A stretch of 58,489 nt of DNA from positions 1 to 58,489 of the forward strand of contig JBDGRL010000087.1 of the NCBI GenBank assembly GCA_042218065.1, read 5' to 3'. Source of the DNA: Candidatus Magasanikiibacteriota bacterium. GTDB lineage: Bacteria > Patescibacteriota > Patescibacteriia > Magasanikbacterales > UBA922. Below the pieces are notes generated by a model that did no database searches, was not told where the DNA came from, and saw only the letters and a list, made by a program, of their open reading frames with translations. Shown one piece after another: positions 14,644 through 19,378 of this stretch (position 1 is the stretch's first letter; each line of letters starts with the position of its first letter). The translations under genes were made by a program, and so were the position numbers.

Positions 14644-14675
14644 AAAATCTGAATTATATAGTTATAAATCGGAAA

Positions 14676-15866
14676 TTATCTATTCTCAGTCTTATCTTTC
14701 ACTTGTTCCAACATAAGTTCTGCTTCCTGAGGATCTTCCGCTACAATAACACTAGCACATTTTTCAGGTAGACAAAAAGGGTTTGCAACAAAGGCACCTT
14801 TTTGATTTTCCGGATCATAATCCAAATTTTCCTGCTCAAAAATTTGATGTACTTCCTGAAATGTTTCCAAGTCAGGGTGTATATTGTGCATCAGCACACA
14901 CCTATCAGAATCTACTTGCTGGTTGATAAAATTAGGGTAAGAAGAGCCGTTGTACCTACAGTTGCATTCCAAAATCTTCCAGTCTCCTGATGAGCTTACC
15001 TTTAGGTCAAACCCGATCCTGCCATAATGTGGAAACTGCTCCACTATACTTCTGGTTGCTTGTTTGATATCATTTATTGTTTCCGTAGCGTCCCATGGGA
15101 ATACCTCTTGGGGTTCAGAAATTAAATTACCCTGATGTATACAATTGTCAATATATTGTCTGGTCCAGTACTGTAGTTCCGGCTCTCCATCTTTTTTAAT
15201 ATCCCAAGTTACACTAAACTCCTGGCCTTTATCATAAAACTCCTCTACTAAGAAAGGGTTTCCATCAGCAAAATCTTCTAGAAACTGATCAAACTCTTTA
15301 GAGTTAAAGTAAGATTTGTCTTCAACCCTCTGAGCCCCAACCCCGCTCGCCTTTTTAGGGTGCCGAACTAAAATATCATCATATTTTTGTGCCATGCTCT
15401 TGCCAGCTTTGGCTAACTCTTTATCCTCACAAACAGAATATTCTGTAAACCACTCTTCTTTACCTAAATCTCTCAGATGAGCTTTATTTTCAAGTTTCAT
15501 ATGAACTTCCGGAGGTTGTGTCTTCCACTGATGATCTTCAAACCCCCATTTTTCTTTGAACTGATTGGTATTCTCCCAAGAAACAAATGGTACTATAGTG
15601 TCACTTTCGTTGATAACTTCATCAAGCTTATTACTCTTATCTAAGGAATGAAACAAGGTTTCTCCATCTGCAGGAACTGACCATACTTTTTTGGGGCCTA
15701 AATTCATAGATTTCAGATAACTCACATAGTTATCCAGGTTCGGTTTCTCATACACTACCACACCTTCTGGGGATAACAGAGCACGAGCAGTATAATCTTC
15801 TACTCCGGATATGTAACCTTCCAAAAATTTTGTGAACAACTCTAAGCAATGTATATGTGTCTTCAT
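14676..15866 (-). CDS. ATP-grasp-like ligase, paralogue 1 (substrate unknown)
   Basis: HPKKASGVGAQ phosphate-binding-like loop and WKILECNCRYNGSS (ExN-type Mg site). It resembles the second copy at 16926-18329. Confidence 0.55.
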   Translation of the reverse strand: MKTHIHCLELFTKFLEGYISGVEDYTARALLSPEGVVVYEKPNLDNYVSYLKSMNLGPKKVWSVPADGETLFHSLDKSNKLDEVINESDTIVPFVSWENTNQFKEKWGFEDHQWKTQPPEVHMKLENKAHLRDLGKEEWFTEYSVCEDKELAKAGKSMAQKYDDILVRHPKKASGVGAQRVEDKSYFNSKEFDQFLEDFADGNPFLVEEFYDKGQEFSVTWDIKKDGEPELQYWTRQYIDNCIHQGNLISEPQEVFPWDATETINDIKQATRSIVEQFPHYGRIGFDLKVSSSGDWKILECNCRYNGSSYPNFINQQVDSDRCVLMHNIHPDLETFQEVHQIFEQENLDYDPENQKGAFVANPFCLPEKCASVIVAEDPQEAELMLEQVKDKTENR

Positions 15867-15905
15867 AACAAATTTACTTTTTAATTTAAATTTATGAATA
15901 AAAAT

Positions 15906-15931
15906 TTCAAAAACCCGCCGTTTCCGGCGGG
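15906..15931 (-). terminator. Intrinsic terminator between small ORF P1 and ATP-grasp 1
   Basis: The minus strand reads CCCGCCG-GAAA-CGGCGGG followed by TTTTTGAAATTTT. It is nearly identical to the terminator at 18401-18424. Confidence 0.8.
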
Positions 15932-15957
15932 CTCTTCTAGCTAATGCCTCTAGTTAA

Positions 15958-16047
15958 TCAAACAATAGAAAAGCCACGCCTCGGAGAACCGAGCACTAAA
16001 AACAGTACAAATACAAATAGATTTTGTTTGTAGTTTCCTTGTGTCAT
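15958..16047 (-). CDS. 29-codon small ORF P1 (MTQGNYKQNLFVFVLFLVLGSPRRGFSIV); coding status uncertain
   Basis: ATG lies 15 nt downstream of a consensus promoter -10. It has the same length and a related C-half as P2, and is followed by conserved helices and a terminator. Confidence 0.5.
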   Translation of the reverse strand: MTQGNYKQNLFVFVLFLVLGSPRRGFSIV

Positions 16048-16062
16048 AATTTTACAAATTAA

Positions 16063-16090
16063 ATTATACAATAAATATCTCTCTTGTCAA
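16063..16090 (-). promoter_or_regulatory. Consensus promoter driving P1 (and, by read-through, ATP-grasp 1)
   Basis: Minus strand reads TTGACA (16090-16085, overlapping the amidotransferase stop), 16 nt, TATAAT (16068-16063). Confidence 0.7.
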
Positions 16091-16803
16091 GATTCCTCAA
16101 CTACATCAACAAATCTATGCAGAACCTCAGTAGAATAAGAAGTATCACCAAAATCAGATAAGGCTTCATCTATATTATCAGCATAGGAAGGATAAAGTTC
16201 TAATCTGTATTTTAATCTTGCTCTAGTTAATTCTGGATGAAACAAAGTCCCCCAAACCTGCTTATCTTCTATTTTAAAAGCTTGAAAATCAACTCTATTA
16301 GAACCAGCCAACCTCACTACATTATTAGGTAAATCAATAATAGTATCTTGGTGAGCTAAAGTGACGTCAAAACCAGAATCTAAATTAGAAAATATCTTAC
16401 ACTTTTCACAATGATCAGTAAGACAAATCTCAAAAGCCCCTACTTCATGATAATGTTCATCATCCGTCAGCTCACCACCCTGATGCAGAGCAATTATTTG
16501 AGACCCCAAACAAACACCCAAAGTTGGAATGTCTGCACCTAAAATATAATCTAGATAAGAAAAAACCTCATCTTTCCATGTACCTTCACCATGACCTTTT
16601 GTAAGATAAAACTCCCCACTGCCTGCTAAGATGACTCCGTCTATTTCAGCTAGTAAAGAAATGTCTAAATCTTCTTCAGTTGCATTTATAAAACTGAGTT
16701 TAATATTTCTCTCTAATAGCTCATCCTTAAAACAATCTTGCTCGTGGTTTAAAGACTGATCTGTACGAAACTGTACCACGAGAACCTTTTTTTCTTCTGA
16801 CAT
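16087..16803 (-). CDS. Class-I glutamine amidotransferase-like protein (GATase1 / peptidase C26-like)
   Basis: Nucleophile elbow GVCLGSQIIA and a distal LFHPE His-Glu motif. The start was set to the ATG (MSEEKKVLVV) rather than the upstream GTG of the ORF track. Confidence 0.75.
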   Translation of the reverse strand: MSEEKKVLVVQFRTDQSLNHEQDCFKDELLERNIKLSFINATEEDLDISLLAEIDGVILAGSGEFYLTKGHGEGTWKDEVFSYLDYILGADIPTLGVCLGSQIIALHQGGELTDDEHYHEVGAFEICLTDHCEKCKIFSNLDSGFDVTLAHQDTIIDLPNNVVRLAGSNRVDFQAFKIEDKQVWGTLFHPELTRARLKYRLELYPSYADNIDEALSDFGDTSYSTEVLHRFVDVVEES

Positions 16804-16925
16804 AAAATGTTGATAATAATACCCCACTTTACTATAGACAAAAGCTTGCCTACAGAAGAGTAGGTGGCCGTTCCCAAAATGAGAACGGCCTTTTCCTTTT
16901 TTAAAGAGCTTAAAATCTAGTAGTT

Positions 16926-18329
16926 TTATTCTTTTCTTTGCAGTGCATTCCTTGCTTTTTCGAACTCATGCTTTGCTTCTGCAAAATCCTCGCCAAACGT
17001 ACACACTCCGCATTTATCTAGCCCCATATCCAACAATGGTGTATGGAACATGACTGTCTGAGTCGGGTTGGGTAGCCGTTCTTTGGCACTATGGTAAGAC
17101 TCGGCTTCCACTTGTAGCACATTACAACCTATTACAACTTTCGGTGCTCCCAAGCTTTCTTCCAGTTGCTTTTGGAGACCGTAGACATACCATGAGTGGC
17201 TTCCACGCGGATTGCACTCCAAAAGCAAAGCCTTTCCATCTTCAGTATACGCAAAATCAAAACAAACTTTACCACGATACCCTTTTTGGTACAGTATACT
17301 CGCAGCCTCCCCCCCGCACTCTCTCAATTTTAATCGAGCCTGAGTGCCCAACGGACCTAAAGGCACCTCTTGAGAACCAACAGCATTTCCCATGTGACCT
17401 ATATCATTTTTTATCAACTGATTTAAGGTAACCAGATCTCCAATCGGAGAATCTTTTCCAATGTTTTGCAGGCTTATGTATTGAAACTGTGGTCCATGAT
17501 CAGTGATATCGTAGATGATAGAGCACGGATGATGTTCGTAAACTTGCTCAACTATCGCTCCAACTTCTGGGTCCCAATTCTCTTCCAAGAAGCTTTGTGG
17601 TTTGTAAACACGAGAACCATTACCCCCATTTATTCCCGATCCTACTTCATCTTTAGAGGGGTAATACTTCTGACCTTCTCCAGAAGCTTTATCCGGACGC
17701 TTTACCACAACCGGTCCACATTTAGATAACCCATCAAAAACTCCTAGCAACTCTTCTCTACTTTCTACCACATAATTTTCAGGACACACCATGCAATCTT
17801 TTGCTTGAAGAGCCTCTCTCAGTCGAGCTTTATTTGCCCATTCTTCGTATTGTTCTTGAGAAGGATTCGTAACGTGTCGATCCCAATCCAATCCCAATTT
17901 TTTTACAAAATCAACTGCCTCAGGCTCACTAGAAAACAACTCCAGTTTGTAACCATCTTGAACTATCAGCTCGTAAATTTTTCTACCAGCATCAGATTTA
18001 AGCACATCATCATAAAAACTGTCTGTCTTTTGAGGGACCTCAATTATTTCTTCCGGTCCTAGCCCTTTTTCTTCTTTCAGATCCTTAAAATAGCTATCGA
18101 AGTCGAACCGAGGGTGAGTATAACTCACCATTTTCTCTACATCCACCAAGGCGACCCTGTTCCAATATGAATCTATCCCGGGAACATGCTGAAGGTGCTC
18201 CCAGTCTTCACCAACGTTGTGTAGAGCAATCGTGCTCATCTCCTCCTCCGTGAGTAACGGAAATGAACTCTCATCAACGGCAAGACCTACTCTTGCCGAT
18301 ACAACAGCTTTTAGCTGCTCAACCGGCAA
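16926..18329 (-). CDS. ATP-grasp-like ligase, paralogue 2 (substrate unknown)
   Basis: RPDKASGEGQ loop and ALLLECNPRGSHS. The ORF-track start is TTG, so the true start is uncertain (next ATG at residue 31). Confidence 0.55.
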   Translation of the reverse strand: MPVEQLKAVVSARVGLAVDESSFPLLTEEEMSTIALHNVGEDWEHLQHVPGIDSYWNRVALVDVEKMVSYTHPRFDFDSYFKDLKEEKGLGPEEIIEVPQKTDSFYDDVLKSDAGRKIYELIVQDGYKLELFSSEPEAVDFVKKLGLDWDRHVTNPSQEQYEEWANKARLREALQAKDCMVCPENYVVESREELLGVFDGLSKCGPVVVKRPDKASGEGQKYYPSKDEVGSGINGGNGSRVYKPQSFLEENWDPEVGAIVEQVYEHHPCSIIYDITDHGPQFQYISLQNIGKDSPIGDLVTLNQLIKNDIGHMGNAVGSQEVPLGPLGTQARLKLRECGGEAASILYQKGYRGKVCFDFAYTEDGKALLLECNPRGSHSWYVYGLQKQLEESLGAPKVVIGCNVLQVEAESYHSAKERLPNPTQTVMFHTPLLDMGLDKCGVCTFGEDFAEAKHEFEKARNALQRKE

Positions 18330-18400
18330 GAGTAGTTTGTGGTAATGCGACTTAAACTTACTAAATTAAGTCCTTTTTGTAAAGTGCTGATCAGAAAATT

Positions 18401-18424
18401 TAAAAAACCCGCTTTCTCAGCGGG
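18401..18424 (-). terminator. Intrinsic terminator between small ORF P2 and ATP-grasp 2
   Basis: The minus strand reads CCCGC-TGAGAAA-GCGGG followed by TTTTTTAAATTTT. Confidence 0.8.
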
Positions 18425-18451
18425 CTCTTCACGATATACTTATAAGATCTT

Positions 18452-18541
18452 CTATCTCAAATCATGAAGAGCTCCGCCTCGATAACCGAGGATCACCAGC
18501 AGAATTTCAATAATTTTAATAAATAATGAAAAGCTCTTCAT
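18452..18541 (-). CDS. 29-codon small ORF P2 (MKSFSLFIKIIEILLVILGYRGGALHDLR); coding status uncertain
   Basis: Paralogous to P1 in length, position and downstream RNA helices. A promoter-like TTGACA lies upstream. Confidence 0.5.
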   Translation of the reverse strand: MKSFSLFIKIIEILLVILGYRGGALHDLR

Positions 18542-18561
18542 AATTTTTCTTAACTATTCTT

Positions 18562-18591
18562 AATATATTAAAACATACATATATCTGTCAA
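18562..18591 (-). promoter_or_regulatory. Promoter-like element upstream of P2
   Basis: Minus strand reads TTGACA (18591-18586) followed at 17-18 nt by an AT-rich -10 (ATATAT/TATATT). Confidence 0.5.
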
Positions 18592-18696: not shown

Positions 18697-19137
18697 TCAA
18701 ACTACTTTCAAACTATCTTTAGCAAGCTCATGTAATTTGCTTTTTTTTGCGTGAGTATAGTTTCCTTCTATATACTTATACCTCTCTCTATTTAATGCTT
18801 TTTCTATTTCATTTTCTACAATATTCTTTAAATAACTTGGTGCCGCTATCATCAAGTGCTTATAATTATTTTGCCACAAATCTTTGGTTTTTTGGGCTAC
18901 TTTTTTCGTATGTTGTTCAATAATCCTTCTTTCCTCAGCATTTTCTATATCTATACCTGCAGTACCAAATGTTTTTCCGTGACCTCTTTTTTCAAAATGA
19001 CCCTCTTTATCGGACAAATCCCACTCCTCTGTAGTCTTCTCTTCCAGTTTCTCAATATCATCACGAAGTACTTTATACCACTTTACCTCTTCTTTGCTTG
19101 TTACTACTAATAGTGATGGGTAATGTGATTGCTTCAT
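18697..19137 (-). CDS. Hypothetical protein, possibly host-attachment / baeRF-like family
   Basis: Pattern LLVVTSKEEVKWY ... HTKKVAQKT ... HLMIAAPSYLKNIVENEI resembles the Host_attach family layout; recognition is weak. Confidence 0.3.
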   Translation of the reverse strand: MKQSHYPSLLVVTSKEEVKWYKVLRDDIEKLEEKTTEEWDLSDKEGHFEKRGHGKTFGTAGIDIENAEERRIIEQHTKKVAQKTKDLWQNNYKHLMIAAPSYLKNIVENEIEKALNRERYKYIEGNYTHAKKSKLHELAKDSLKVV

Positions 19138-19159
19138 AGAAATAAAATTAGTTTTGATT

Positions 19160-19342
19160 TAAAACAGCTCGCAATAAACTGCGAGCCGCTCTATACCTGC
19201 CCTCAGGGGATTAACCTCTGTCCCTATATGGTATAGTGGGTGGCCGCAGAACTTAACCTACGGACGAACCGCCGGGCTAAGCCGATATAAGCCCCCTTTG
19301 AATTGGGTGTCGGACATGGTTTTCTCCTCCTGTAGGGCAGGT
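19160..19342 (-). ncRNA. ~183-nt structured RNA with its own promoter and terminator; rod-like fold with a central bubble (6S-RNA-like candidate)
   Basis: Closing stem ACCTGCCCT (19195-19203) / AGGGCAGGT (19334-19342) extends through CAGG(A)GG/CCCCTG, AACC/GGTT and GTCC/GGAC. A ~15x14-nt bubble follows. The inner stem is GGGGGC/GCC(A)CCC and GGCUUAGCC/GGUUAAGUU, capped by an apical UUCG-type loop. The terminator is GCTCGCA/TGCGAGC plus a U-run (19160-19186). Confidence 0.55.
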
Positions 19343-19348
19343 GTATGT

Positions 19349-19377
19349 ATTGTACTACGTCTTTCTTAGGGGGTCAA
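19349..19377 (-). promoter_or_regulatory. Near-consensus promoter of the structured RNA
   Basis: Minus strand reads TTGACC (19377-19372, adjoining the ndk stop), 17 nt, TACAAT (19354-19349). The predicted start falls at the base of the closing stem. Confidence 0.65.
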
Positions 19378-19378
19378 A

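Follow-up and report, generated by a model that had tools for sequence, protein, structure and literature searches.

Leader-peptide attenuators probably control an ATP-grasp ligase cluster in a Candidatus Magasanikiibacteriota bacterium

Introduction

Why should two short genes for hydrophobic peptides each stand, with a promoter and a terminator of their own, in front of a gene for an ATP-grasp enzyme? This question is raised by a locus on contig JBDGRL010000087.1 of a Candidatus Magasanikiibacteriota bacterium (GenBank assembly GCA_042218065.1; positions 1 to 58,489, the whole stretch of DNA that was analysed and is called the window here). Two ATP-grasp genes, AG1 and AG2, belong to this locus together with a gene for a class-I glutamine amidotransferase (GATase), and a 29-codon open reading frame (ORF) precedes each ATP-grasp gene: P1 in the leader of AG1 (leader 1) and P2 in the leader of AG2 (leader 2). 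All of these elements, including the promoters and terminators, lie on the minus strand.

The original prediction for this locus took P1 and P2 as precursors of RiPPs (peptides made by the ribosome and then altered post-translationally), which the ATP-grasp enzymes would modify or extend. Our analysis points elsewhere: each module is probably a ribosome-mediated (leader-peptide) transcription attenuator of the trp, ilv or phe type.

Results

Each ATP-grasp gene is preceded by a promoter, a short ORF and a terminator

The elements of the two leaders are as follows.

18562-18591, minus strand: promoter of leader 2, TTGACA-18-TATATT (promoter scan, 11 of 12 consensus positions)
18452-18541, minus strand: leader ORF 2 (P2), 29 codons, Ile/Leu-rich, MKSFSLFIKIIEILLVILGYRGGALHDLR (ORF list, conservation)
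18527-18546, minus strand: region 1 of leader 2, AAAUUAUGAAGAGCUUUUCA, predicted anti-antiterminator pairing with region 2 (RNAduplex)
18477-18491, minus strand: small hairpin of leader 2, CCUCG-GUUAU-CGAGG, immediately 5′ of region 2 (11 of 11 aligned leaders)
18460-18479, minus strand: region 2 of leader 2, AGGCGGAGCUCUUCAUGAUU, predicted antiterminator strand (duplex energy, alignment, mask folding)
18401-18438, minus strand: intrinsic terminator of leader 2 with a stem at 18431-18401 and a U-tract; the strand that pairs in the antiterminator reaches 18438
18286-18336, minus strand: hairpin ACUACUCUUGCCGG...CGGCAAGAGUAGG between the attenuator and the ribosome-binding site (RBS) of AG2, also seen in relatives
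16063-16090, minus strand: promoter of leader 1, TTGACA-16-TATAAT (promoter scan, 12 of 12 consensus positions)
15958-16047, minus strand: leader ORF 1 (P1), 29 codons, Phe/Leu/Val-rich, MTQGNYKQNLFVFVLFLVLGSPRRGFSIV (ORF list, composition)
15980-15993, minus strand: small hairpin of leader 1, CUCGG-UUCU-CCGAG (conserved in aligned leaders)
15965-15981, minus strand: region 2 of leader 1, AGGCGUGGCUUUUCUAU, predicted antiterminator strand (duplex energy, mask folding)
15909-15945, minus strand: intrinsic terminator of leader 1 with a stem at 15936-15909; the strand that pairs in the antiterminator reaches 15945

The consensus promoters, the 29-codon ORFs and the near-identical terminators that had been described for both modules were thus all recovered. 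Both terminators have GC-rich stems of 12-13 bp followed by U-tracts and are conserved across all leaders. Leaders 1 and 2 align with each other in a hairpin, in a GCUyUUC segment and in the terminator, and a covariance model of the module, built from the leaders, has exactly two matches in the 58-kb window (~77 bits, E ~4e-14).

For comparison we used 24 homologous leaders from 10 related loci (12 close and 12 distant, the distant loci having been reached through an exhaustive HMMER search). The combination of promoter, short ORF and terminator is present in all 12 close and all 12 distant leaders, with an equivalent of the TTGACA promoter in every one. Most ATP-grasp genes in the related loci follow a short ORF that lies between a TTGACA promoter and a terminator like that of the window. 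The ATP-grasp proteins of the relatives fall into two orthogroups, 'a' (first in the locus) and 'b' (which includes AG1); AG2 occupies the 'a' position behind an Ile/Val/Leu-type leader, but is only 20-27% identical to the relatives. Besides ATP-grasp genes, the 24 leaders precede GATase, GCS2, malic-enzyme and three unassigned genes; in the syntenic loci such a leader stands before a GCS2 gene, two GATase genes and a malic-enzyme gene.

Searches of Rfam at both gathering and permissive thresholds assigned neither leader to a riboswitch, a T-box or a known leader family; the weak matches were solely to Trp_leader and Phe_leader, the best at 19-21 bits against gathering thresholds of 41-55. A metagenome scan with a DNA pattern (GCGGnGCTyyT...ARAGCCCGC...GCGGGYTT) was discarded, all of its 34 matches being chance occurrences at gene ends in higher-GC genomes.

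The 3′ end of each leader ORF mimics one arm of the terminator

Region 2 (GGCGGnGCUCUU...), with which the leader ORF closes at its 3′ end, nearly duplicates the terminator 3′ arm. Because of this resemblance it is able to pair with the terminator 5′ arm as an antiterminator. The cognate duplexes between region 2 and the terminator 5′ arm have predicted energies of -19 to -28 kcal/mol, with z-scores of -2.2 to -6.6 against dinucleotide shuffles, and always lie at or beside the leader stop codon. The values for the window are -28.1 kcal/mol (z=-6.6) in leader 2 and -22.4 kcal/mol (z=-4.1, equalled by 0 of 300 shuffles) in leader 1. Most of the distant leaders likewise show an antiterminator at the stop codon, with z-scores down to -7.6.

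The same helix is supported by covariation. On an alignment of 11 leaders (A4), 93.9% of the cells are paired and 5 of the 12 antiterminator pairs show compensatory changes on both sides; none of 500 shuffles matched the observed values, and slid controls paired at no more than 54%. The antiterminator carries a conserved one-base bulge, and the small CUCG/CGAG hairpin directly 5′ of region 2 is found in all 11 aligned leaders. Region 1 pairs significantly with region 2 in each of the four 'a'-type leaders (z -3.5 to -6.1). This pairing is predicted for leader 2 by RNAduplex at -20.6 kcal/mol (z=-6.1, 0 of 300 shuffles equal) and also appears in the minimum free energy fold of the full-length leader.

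To place a ribosome on the leader, we folded transcripts that end before the terminator 3′ arm with the ribosome-covered positions masked. The antiterminator forms in the ribosome-free transcript and persists for A-site positions from codon 1 to ~19, whereas a ribosome over the stop or the last ~10 codons removes it; in leader 1 a ribosome over codons 21 to stop abolishes the pairing.

The short ORFs conserve the stop position and the RNA, not the peptide

In 11 of the 12 close leaders the ORF stops 24-27 nt ahead of the terminator core, though the ORFs span 24 to 35 codons, and an ORF with its stop so positioned would be expected in only 0.24 leaders from shuffles. The distance from the stop to the CCCGC core is 27 nt in leader 2, and that to the core in leader 1 is 26 nt. 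In contrast, neither the sequence nor the length (17-39 aa) of the peptide is conserved, and only the residue runs and the position of the stop are retained.

A conserved motif near the ORF end, CGAGGCGGnGCUCUU, is read as ..RGGA(L/F).. in seven leaders including P2 and as ..(S/P)RR.. in four leaders including P1. Because it is read in two different frames, this motif must be conserved as RNA. The original prediction had stated that it would fall if homologous loci kept the RNA helices but not the reading frame, and this is what the motif shows. It had also proposed to test whether a short ORF with synonymous-biased substitution always lies upstream in homologous loci. An ORF is there, with a positioned stop in 11 of 12 leaders; the 'a' leaders of L003 and L005 differ by 10 non-synonymous and 2 synonymous changes, and the changes inside the hydrophobic run remain within Ile, Val and Leu.

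The amino acids of the leaders follow the downstream paralogue

We grouped the leaders by the gene that they precede, with type A being those of 'b'-type ATP-grasp, GATase and GCS2 genes and type B those of 'a'-type genes. Type A leaders are rich in Phe and Leu (Phe 14.9% versus a background of 4.6%, 3.2-fold, p=9e-9; Ile 1%), whereas type B leaders are rich in Ile, Val and Leu (Ile 13%, 2-fold; Val 10%; Leu 16%). The difference in Ile between the two types has a p-value of 3e-6.

In the distant loci (~30% protein identity, GC 41-56%), where nucleotide similarity is gone, leader composition still tracks the downstream paralogue, and the leaders of the relatives hold runs such as PFFFGGFPFF, YYY, LLLNLDLL/LSLNLLL, IIIDLVI/TIINLTI and VVVQVV. 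In L046, MTRRSLPFFFGGFPFF.. lies upstream of a 396-aa ATP-grasp gene and ..IISNVILFVILIP.. upstream of a 450-aa ATP-grasp gene with its GATase. In L045, MTHRQFTFTYFFGFW.. precedes a GCS2 gene beside prephenate dehydratase and prephenate dehydrogenase, and ..VSIMLVVL.. precedes ATP-grasp and GATase. Four ATP-grasp paralogues in L048 have leaders with LYFSLGFSGF, GLLLNLDLL, SYYYA and AAIIIDLVIA; they are followed by a GATase, one further gene and then EPSP synthase. The leaders of L049 contain LSLNLLL and TIINLTI, and orthologues share the leader residue: both members of an L048/L049 pair with 44% identity have Leu, and the Ile pair behaves likewise.

The covariance model also found a Val-rich leader (..SSVVVQVVNLVARGGALLVDTP) at L002 1-143, with the same hairpin, antiterminator and terminator, before a malic-enzyme gene, which indicates that the attenuator family extends beyond the ATP-grasp cluster. 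An atypical leader at L002 1278-1654, before an 'a'-type ATP-grasp gene, combines an ORF of 43 codons that is not hydrophobic (MITFSQSTINKRIESMRMLRELARYLIRNLTPRCDIQTQTGKM) with two terminators in tandem. Because a 5′ segment of this ORF is complementary to the 5′ arm of the first terminator, it appears to follow a different logic.

The genes behind the leaders encode ATP-grasp paralogues and a GuaA-like amidotransferase

The genes behind the leaders, and the spacer between two of them, are as follows.

14676-15866, minus strand: AG1, ATP-grasp ligase of the 'b' orthogroup, 396 aa (ORF list, relatives, AlphaFold/Foldseek)
16926-18239, minus strand: AG2, ATP-grasp ligase paralogue, 437 aa from ATG 18239 (paralogy, family alignment)
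16087-16827, minus strand: GATase, class-I glutamine amidotransferase, like GuaA subunit A (Pfam, NCBIfam and PDB matches)
16828-16925, minus strand: AG2-GATase intergenic spacer with two hairpins (hairpins at the same junction in relatives)

AG1 and AG2 are paralogues (24% identity, E=1e-13), as had been supposed from their shared motifs. Both contain KASG[VE]G and LECN[CP]R...S, which are invariant columns of the family alignment, as are the K/E-x-N/R columns. Profile searches placed the GATase, but all Pfam and NCBIfam ATP-grasp matches of AG1 and AG2 remained below threshold, so that the ATP-grasp assignment rests on an AlphaFold model and Foldseek. The AG1 model, made with 11 homologues, has a pLDDT of 87. 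Its best PDB matches are 8ynd, PGM1 (3wvq), BesA (8yi6) and LdmS (7r8p), with E-values of 1e-20 to 5e-16 and TM-scores of ~0.65-0.73, ahead of PurK and biotin carboxylases, and a profile search gave weak matches to two of them (7r8p, 0.002; 3wvq, 0.004). This is a likeness at the level of the fold, with 12-14% identity to ligases of the PGM1/LdmS/BesA type. We regard AG1 and AG2 as catalytically intact ATP-grasp carboxylate-amine ligases with a PGM1/LdmS/BesA-like fold. We also considered a carbamoyl-phosphate-synthetase-like reading of GATase plus ATP-grasp and hold it to be less likely, the PurK and biotin carboxylase matches being weaker than those to the ligases and the ATP-grasp units single.

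The predicted GATase1/C26-like gene between the modules is confirmed by matches to PF00117 (2.7e-16), Peptidase_C26 (9e-7), GGP1 (2.7e-4) and the NCBIfam GATase models. Its catalytic motifs GxCxG (Cys in GVCLGSQ) and FHPE (His-Pro-Glu) are intact, and its nearest PDB structures are the glutaminases of GMP synthase subunit A. Its activity may be that of a glutaminase or, in view of the Peptidase_C26 and GGP1 matches, of a gamma-glutamyl hydrolase. An alternative start at ATG 16803 is possible.

The ATP-grasp family is rare. A word-index search of 5.8 billion clustered proteins found 10 relatives of AG1, to which a profile search added none, and no relatives of AG2. An exhaustive HMMER search of 1.8 billion representative proteins returned 83 relatives at E<1e-3, of which 2 had E<1e-30. 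A scan of GTDB genomes with the ATP-grasp profile yielded a single genome, a Candidatus Paceibacteria metagenome-assembled genome (MAG) that had been found already; one other named relative is also from a MAG of the Patescibacteria group.

The start of AG2 had been set at TTG 18329. Because an RBS (GGAGGAGGAG) lies upstream of ATG 18239 and this start agrees with the N-terminus of the family, we place it there, at M31 of the longer ORF, whose 31 surplus codons overlap a conserved RNA hairpin. The terminator had been described as ending 40-70 nt before each ATP-grasp gene; this holds for AG1 (~40 nt), whereas the gap between terminator 2 and the revised AG2 start is ~160 nt. The stable hairpin at 18286-18336 within this gap has counterparts before 'a'-type ATP-grasp genes in L002-L005, L045 and L046, with a different sequence in L045 and L046. 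At 18340-18375 (minus), just past the leader 2 terminator, there is a promoter-like TTTACA-17-TAAGTT, also present in L003 and L005 and absent from L004, which could give AG2 some attenuator-independent transcription.

Gene neighbourhood and further elements

The cluster sits in conserved housekeeping synteny, with NDK, an eRF1-like gene, rhodanese, PBP, L28, M50 and S12 as neighbours in the window, and an order of NDK, eRF1-like, repeated [ATP-grasp - GATase], rhodanese, PBP, L28, M50, S12, S7 and EF-G in the syntenic loci L001-L009. Each 'b'-type ATP-grasp gene in L002-L007 has its own GATase directly behind it, often with overlapping or abutting stop and start codons. At 14644-14675 AG1 runs straight on into the rhodanese gene, so that its partner GATase seems to have been lost, which leaves a single GATase in the window. 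The AG2-GATase spacer (16828-16925, minus) contains the hairpins GGCCGUUCUC..GGGAACGGCC and CUGUAGGCAAGC..GUCUAUAG, and hairpins are also found at the ATP-grasp/GATase junction in L002, L003, L004, L046, L048 and L049. Such hairpins may act in processing or stability, or as an internal terminator.

Aromatic-pathway genes (prephenate dehydratase, prephenate dehydrogenase and EPSP synthase) stand beside the cluster at L045 1854-4274, L048 12400-13332 and L049 6261-7838. GCS2 genes, for YbdK-type carboxylate-amine ligases, have their own leaders rich in Phe or aromatic residues in L045 and L004.

Two further elements adjoin the window cluster. A gene at 18697-19137 (minus) encodes a 146-aa protein with sub-threshold matches to Host_attach and baeRF_family12 (eRF1-like release-factor fold) and 80% identity in L003; a link to ribosome stalling or rescue is possible. 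The gene at the equivalent position in L048 is unrelated and unassigned and has its own leader ORF and terminator. Between this gene and NDK, at 19138-19378 (minus), lies a structured RNA of ~150 nt with its own promoter (TTGACC-17-TACAAT) and terminator; L003 and L005 have it at ~95% identity, and it can also be recognised in L004. We take it to be non-coding because only 5 codons of its 19-codon ORF are left in relatives. Of the 58 pairs that RNAalifold predicts, 10 show compensatory changes, and no match to any family was found in Rfam. It is a candidate for a new riboswitch or small RNA (sRNA).

Discussion

A model for ribosome-mediated attenuation

The leaders can be read as follows. Transcription would start at the strong promoter and the short ORF would be translated immediately. 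A ribosome that moves fast to the last codons or the stop would mask region 2, so that the terminator forms and transcription ends. A ribosome stalled earlier in the hydrophobic codons (Phe, Leu and Val in leader 1, Ile and Leu in leader 2) would leave region 2 free to pair with the terminator 5′ arm as an antiterminator, and transcription would read through into AG1 behind leader 1 and into AG2 and the GATase gene behind leader 2. When leader 2 is not translated, region 1 would sequester region 2, an arrangement that leader 1 would mostly lack. The signal would be the supply of charged tRNA for the leader amino acids, AG1 and AG2 with the GATase would be induced on starvation, and the small CUCG/CGAG hairpin may serve as an RNA polymerase pause site that couples polymerase to ribosome. 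The leaky terminator that had been supposed to follow a precursor gene would instead be a regulated attenuator, with which the region 2 antiterminator competes.

Related mechanisms fit less well. We rejected a pyrBI-type model, with the ribosome physically blocking the terminator, because the ORF ends 24-27 nt before the terminator core, and force sensing of the MifM or SecM type on the inference that the entire 17-39-aa peptide lies within the exit tunnel when the ribosome reaches the stop.

Several observations weigh against the attenuation model. The leader RNA structures are all thermodynamic predictions. When the complete terminator is included, the equilibrium fold favours termination at every ribosome position in the leaders W-1, L003-1 and L005-1, and the model therefore depends on the order and kinetics of co-transcriptional folding; we found such folding uninformative for several leaders, the terminator always winning. 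The pairing of region 1 with region 2 is weak in leader 1 (z=-1.8) and weak or absent in most 'b'-type leaders, so that leader 2 has the full 1:2 / 2:3 / 3:4 design and leader 1 a three-element version. The leader ORFs lack a Shine-Dalgarno sequence, whereas several enzyme genes including AG2 have strong ones, and many distant leader ORFs begin 8-12 nt past the -10 box and so look leaderless. The window leaders are of mixed hydrophobic composition (F/L/V and I/L) rather than clean single-residue runs, and the p-values overstate independence because the leaders are phylogenetically related. Finally, the genes behind the leaders are not recognisable amino-acid biosynthesis genes, which leaves the physiological logic of the control conjectural.

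Alternative explanations for the leaders

The main rival is an antibiotic-sensing attenuator. A leader that senses general translation inhibition, or a drug or metabolite through nascent-peptide stalling (as in erm, cat, vmlR or bmrCD, or like TnaC and SpeFL), would use an identical RNA logic, in which any stall before region 2 leads to read-through, and the ATP-grasp and GATase genes would then be a resistance or stress response. Hydrophobic leaders rich in I, F and V are typical of macrolide-sensing leaders, the target genes are not biosynthetic, and an eRF1-like (baeRF/Host_attach) gene adjoins the cluster. Such sensing, however, has no need of a residue pattern that is specific to each paralogue, which is a hallmark of amino-acid attenuators, and here the composition is kept between orthologues (Leu with Leu, Ile with Ile, and the runs YYY, FFF and VVV) while the peptide sequence is otherwise unconserved. 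We therefore consider drug sensing unlikely, if worth keeping in mind. Less probable still is that P1 and P2 are independent genes, with ordinary terminators, for hydrophobic membrane peptides of small size or for sRNAs, and that the ATP-grasp genes are transcribed by unregulated read-through or from promoters of their own. A basic N-terminus followed by one transmembrane-like segment would suit such peptides, as would the promoter-like match past the leader 2 terminator in the window, L003 and L005. That match is missing in L004, however, and this explanation does not account for a terminator-arm mimic with covariation, a fixed spacing of stop and terminator, a motif read in two frames, or the YYY, LLL and III runs in leaders down to 17 aa.

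The reading with which the locus was first described, a RiPP-like system in which P1 and P2 are modified or extended by their cognate ATP-grasp ligases and a leaky terminator sets the precursor-to-enzyme ratio, is the hardest to sustain. It draws on the presence of one short ORF per ligase, on the solved structures nearest to AG1, which include PGM1 and another Streptomyces ATP-grasp peptide ligase, on a weak AG2 match to TIGR04187 (ATP-grasp ribosomal peptide maturase; E=0.007, 15.6 bits against a cut-off of 350), and on the graspetide clusters that are known in candidate phyla radiation (CPR) bacteria (PMC8939145). Against it, the C-terminal coding segment is an antiterminator strand with covariation that is read in two frames, the peptide is conserved in neither sequence nor length, and leaders of equal type also precede GATase, GCS2 and malic-enzyme genes. 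P1 and P2 are indeed hydrophobic, as was noted at the outset, and have neither a Thr/Ser/Lys plus Asp/Glu graspetide core nor a Phhx(1,2)h leader motif. The genes of the locus include neither a protease nor an exporter. We thus hold it to be highly improbable that the short ORFs encode RiPP substrates, and return to leader-peptide attenuation in what follows.

Relation to known systems

The modules are most likely new members of the classical leader-peptide attenuator class, in an unusual host and with unusual targets. Like those of the enterobacterial ilvGMEDA/ilvBN, leu, pheA/pheST, thr, his and trp operons, they have a promoter-proximal ORF rich in the regulatory residue, alternative 2:3 / 3:4 helices that end in an intrinsic terminator (with the 1:2 helix in leader 2 and the other 'a'-type leaders), and a stop sited such that the terminating ribosome would mask the antiterminator strand; the multivalent Ile/Val/Leu or Phe leaders resemble ilvL and pheL. 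Unlike them, the window leaders belong to none of the Rfam families by sequence or covariance model and occur in a Patescibacteria/CPR host; the leaders of the window and its relatives precede ATP-grasp ligase, GATase, GCS2 and malic-enzyme genes rather than canonical biosynthetic operons, and have ORFs without a Shine-Dalgarno sequence that are often near-leaderless. Most Phe-type leaders here also do without region 1, and the small hairpin and the one-base antiterminator bulge are additional conserved features. In the searchable literature we found no description of leader-peptide attenuation in Patescibacteria or of an ATP-grasp/GATase cluster of this kind.

The attenuators of ermK, vmlR, bmrCD and lmo0919 share a short hydrophobic upstream ORF, the competition of antiterminator and terminator, and read-through upon stalling. 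Their leaders, in contrast, lack paralogue-specific runs and control resistance genes, and nothing at the window locus points to drug sensing. The T-box riboswitches of Firmicutes are functional analogues with amino-acid-specific terminator read-through on tRNA charging and one specificity per gene, but they bind tRNA directly and have no leader peptide, and the window leaders have no T-box match in Rfam.

Among the enzymes, PGM1 (pheganomycin peptide ligase), the Streptomyces protein 8ynd, BesA and LdmS (L-Asp-L-Met ligase) share the modelled fold of AG1 and its conserved catalytic residues. They differ by an identity of only 12-14%; the window enzymes have no natural-product cluster beside them, and their partner is a GuaA-like glutaminase whose translation is often coupled in relatives. 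The CPR graspetide clusters that Makarova et al. (2022, PMC8939145) described likewise combine ATP-grasp genes with small upstream ORFs. Their precursors join a Phhx(1,2)h leader motif to cores of the form TxxxTx(6-10)Dx(1-4)D, and their neighbours are peptidase, TPR, 'cluster 23', SPASM or methyltransferase genes (PMC8939145); none of these precursor motifs or neighbour genes occurs at the window locus.

Possible function and significance

The proposed control of the starvation type points to a role in amino-acid metabolism, in the supply, salvage or protection of the sensed amino acid, as do the glutaminase-like partner, the fact that ATP-grasp and GATase genes are tightly coupled in relatives, and the GCS2, prephenate dehydratase, prephenate dehydrogenase and EPSP synthase genes nearby in relatives. 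The most plausible role of the enzymes is that of an amino-acid-specific ligase or glutamine-dependent amidoligase that acquires or balances this amino acid; the chemistry could be glutamine-dependent amidoligation, or gamma-glutamyl ligation with subsequent hydrolysis.

The RiPP annotation, appealing but unsupported, gives way to a testable regulatory mechanism, which would extend classical leader-peptide attenuation to Patescibacteria/CPR. For a rare and unannotated ATP-grasp family, the leaders would serve as labels that are built into the locus (Phe/Leu, Ile/Val/Leu, Tyr, Leu, Ile, Val), and such labels make it testable how CPR symbionts, whose metabolism is minimal, cope when amino acids are limiting. 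A locus can contain as many as four or five ATP-grasp paralogues, with leaders for different amino acids (Phe, Tyr, Leu, Ile, Val); the paralogues are coupled to a GuaA-like glutaminase and in some cases also to GCS2. We tentatively suggest, as a possibility that we would rate somewhat below even, that these paralogues form an unrecognised amino-acid-specific enzyme system of Patescibacteria, in which each ligase acts on the amino acid of its leader, or on a precursor or analogue of it, and is induced by poor tRNA charging. If this is true, each orphan ATP-grasp enzyme would carry a ready substrate prediction in its leader, and the system would offer a new way to acquire, salvage or protect amino acids in organisms that are thought to depend wholly on their hosts for them.

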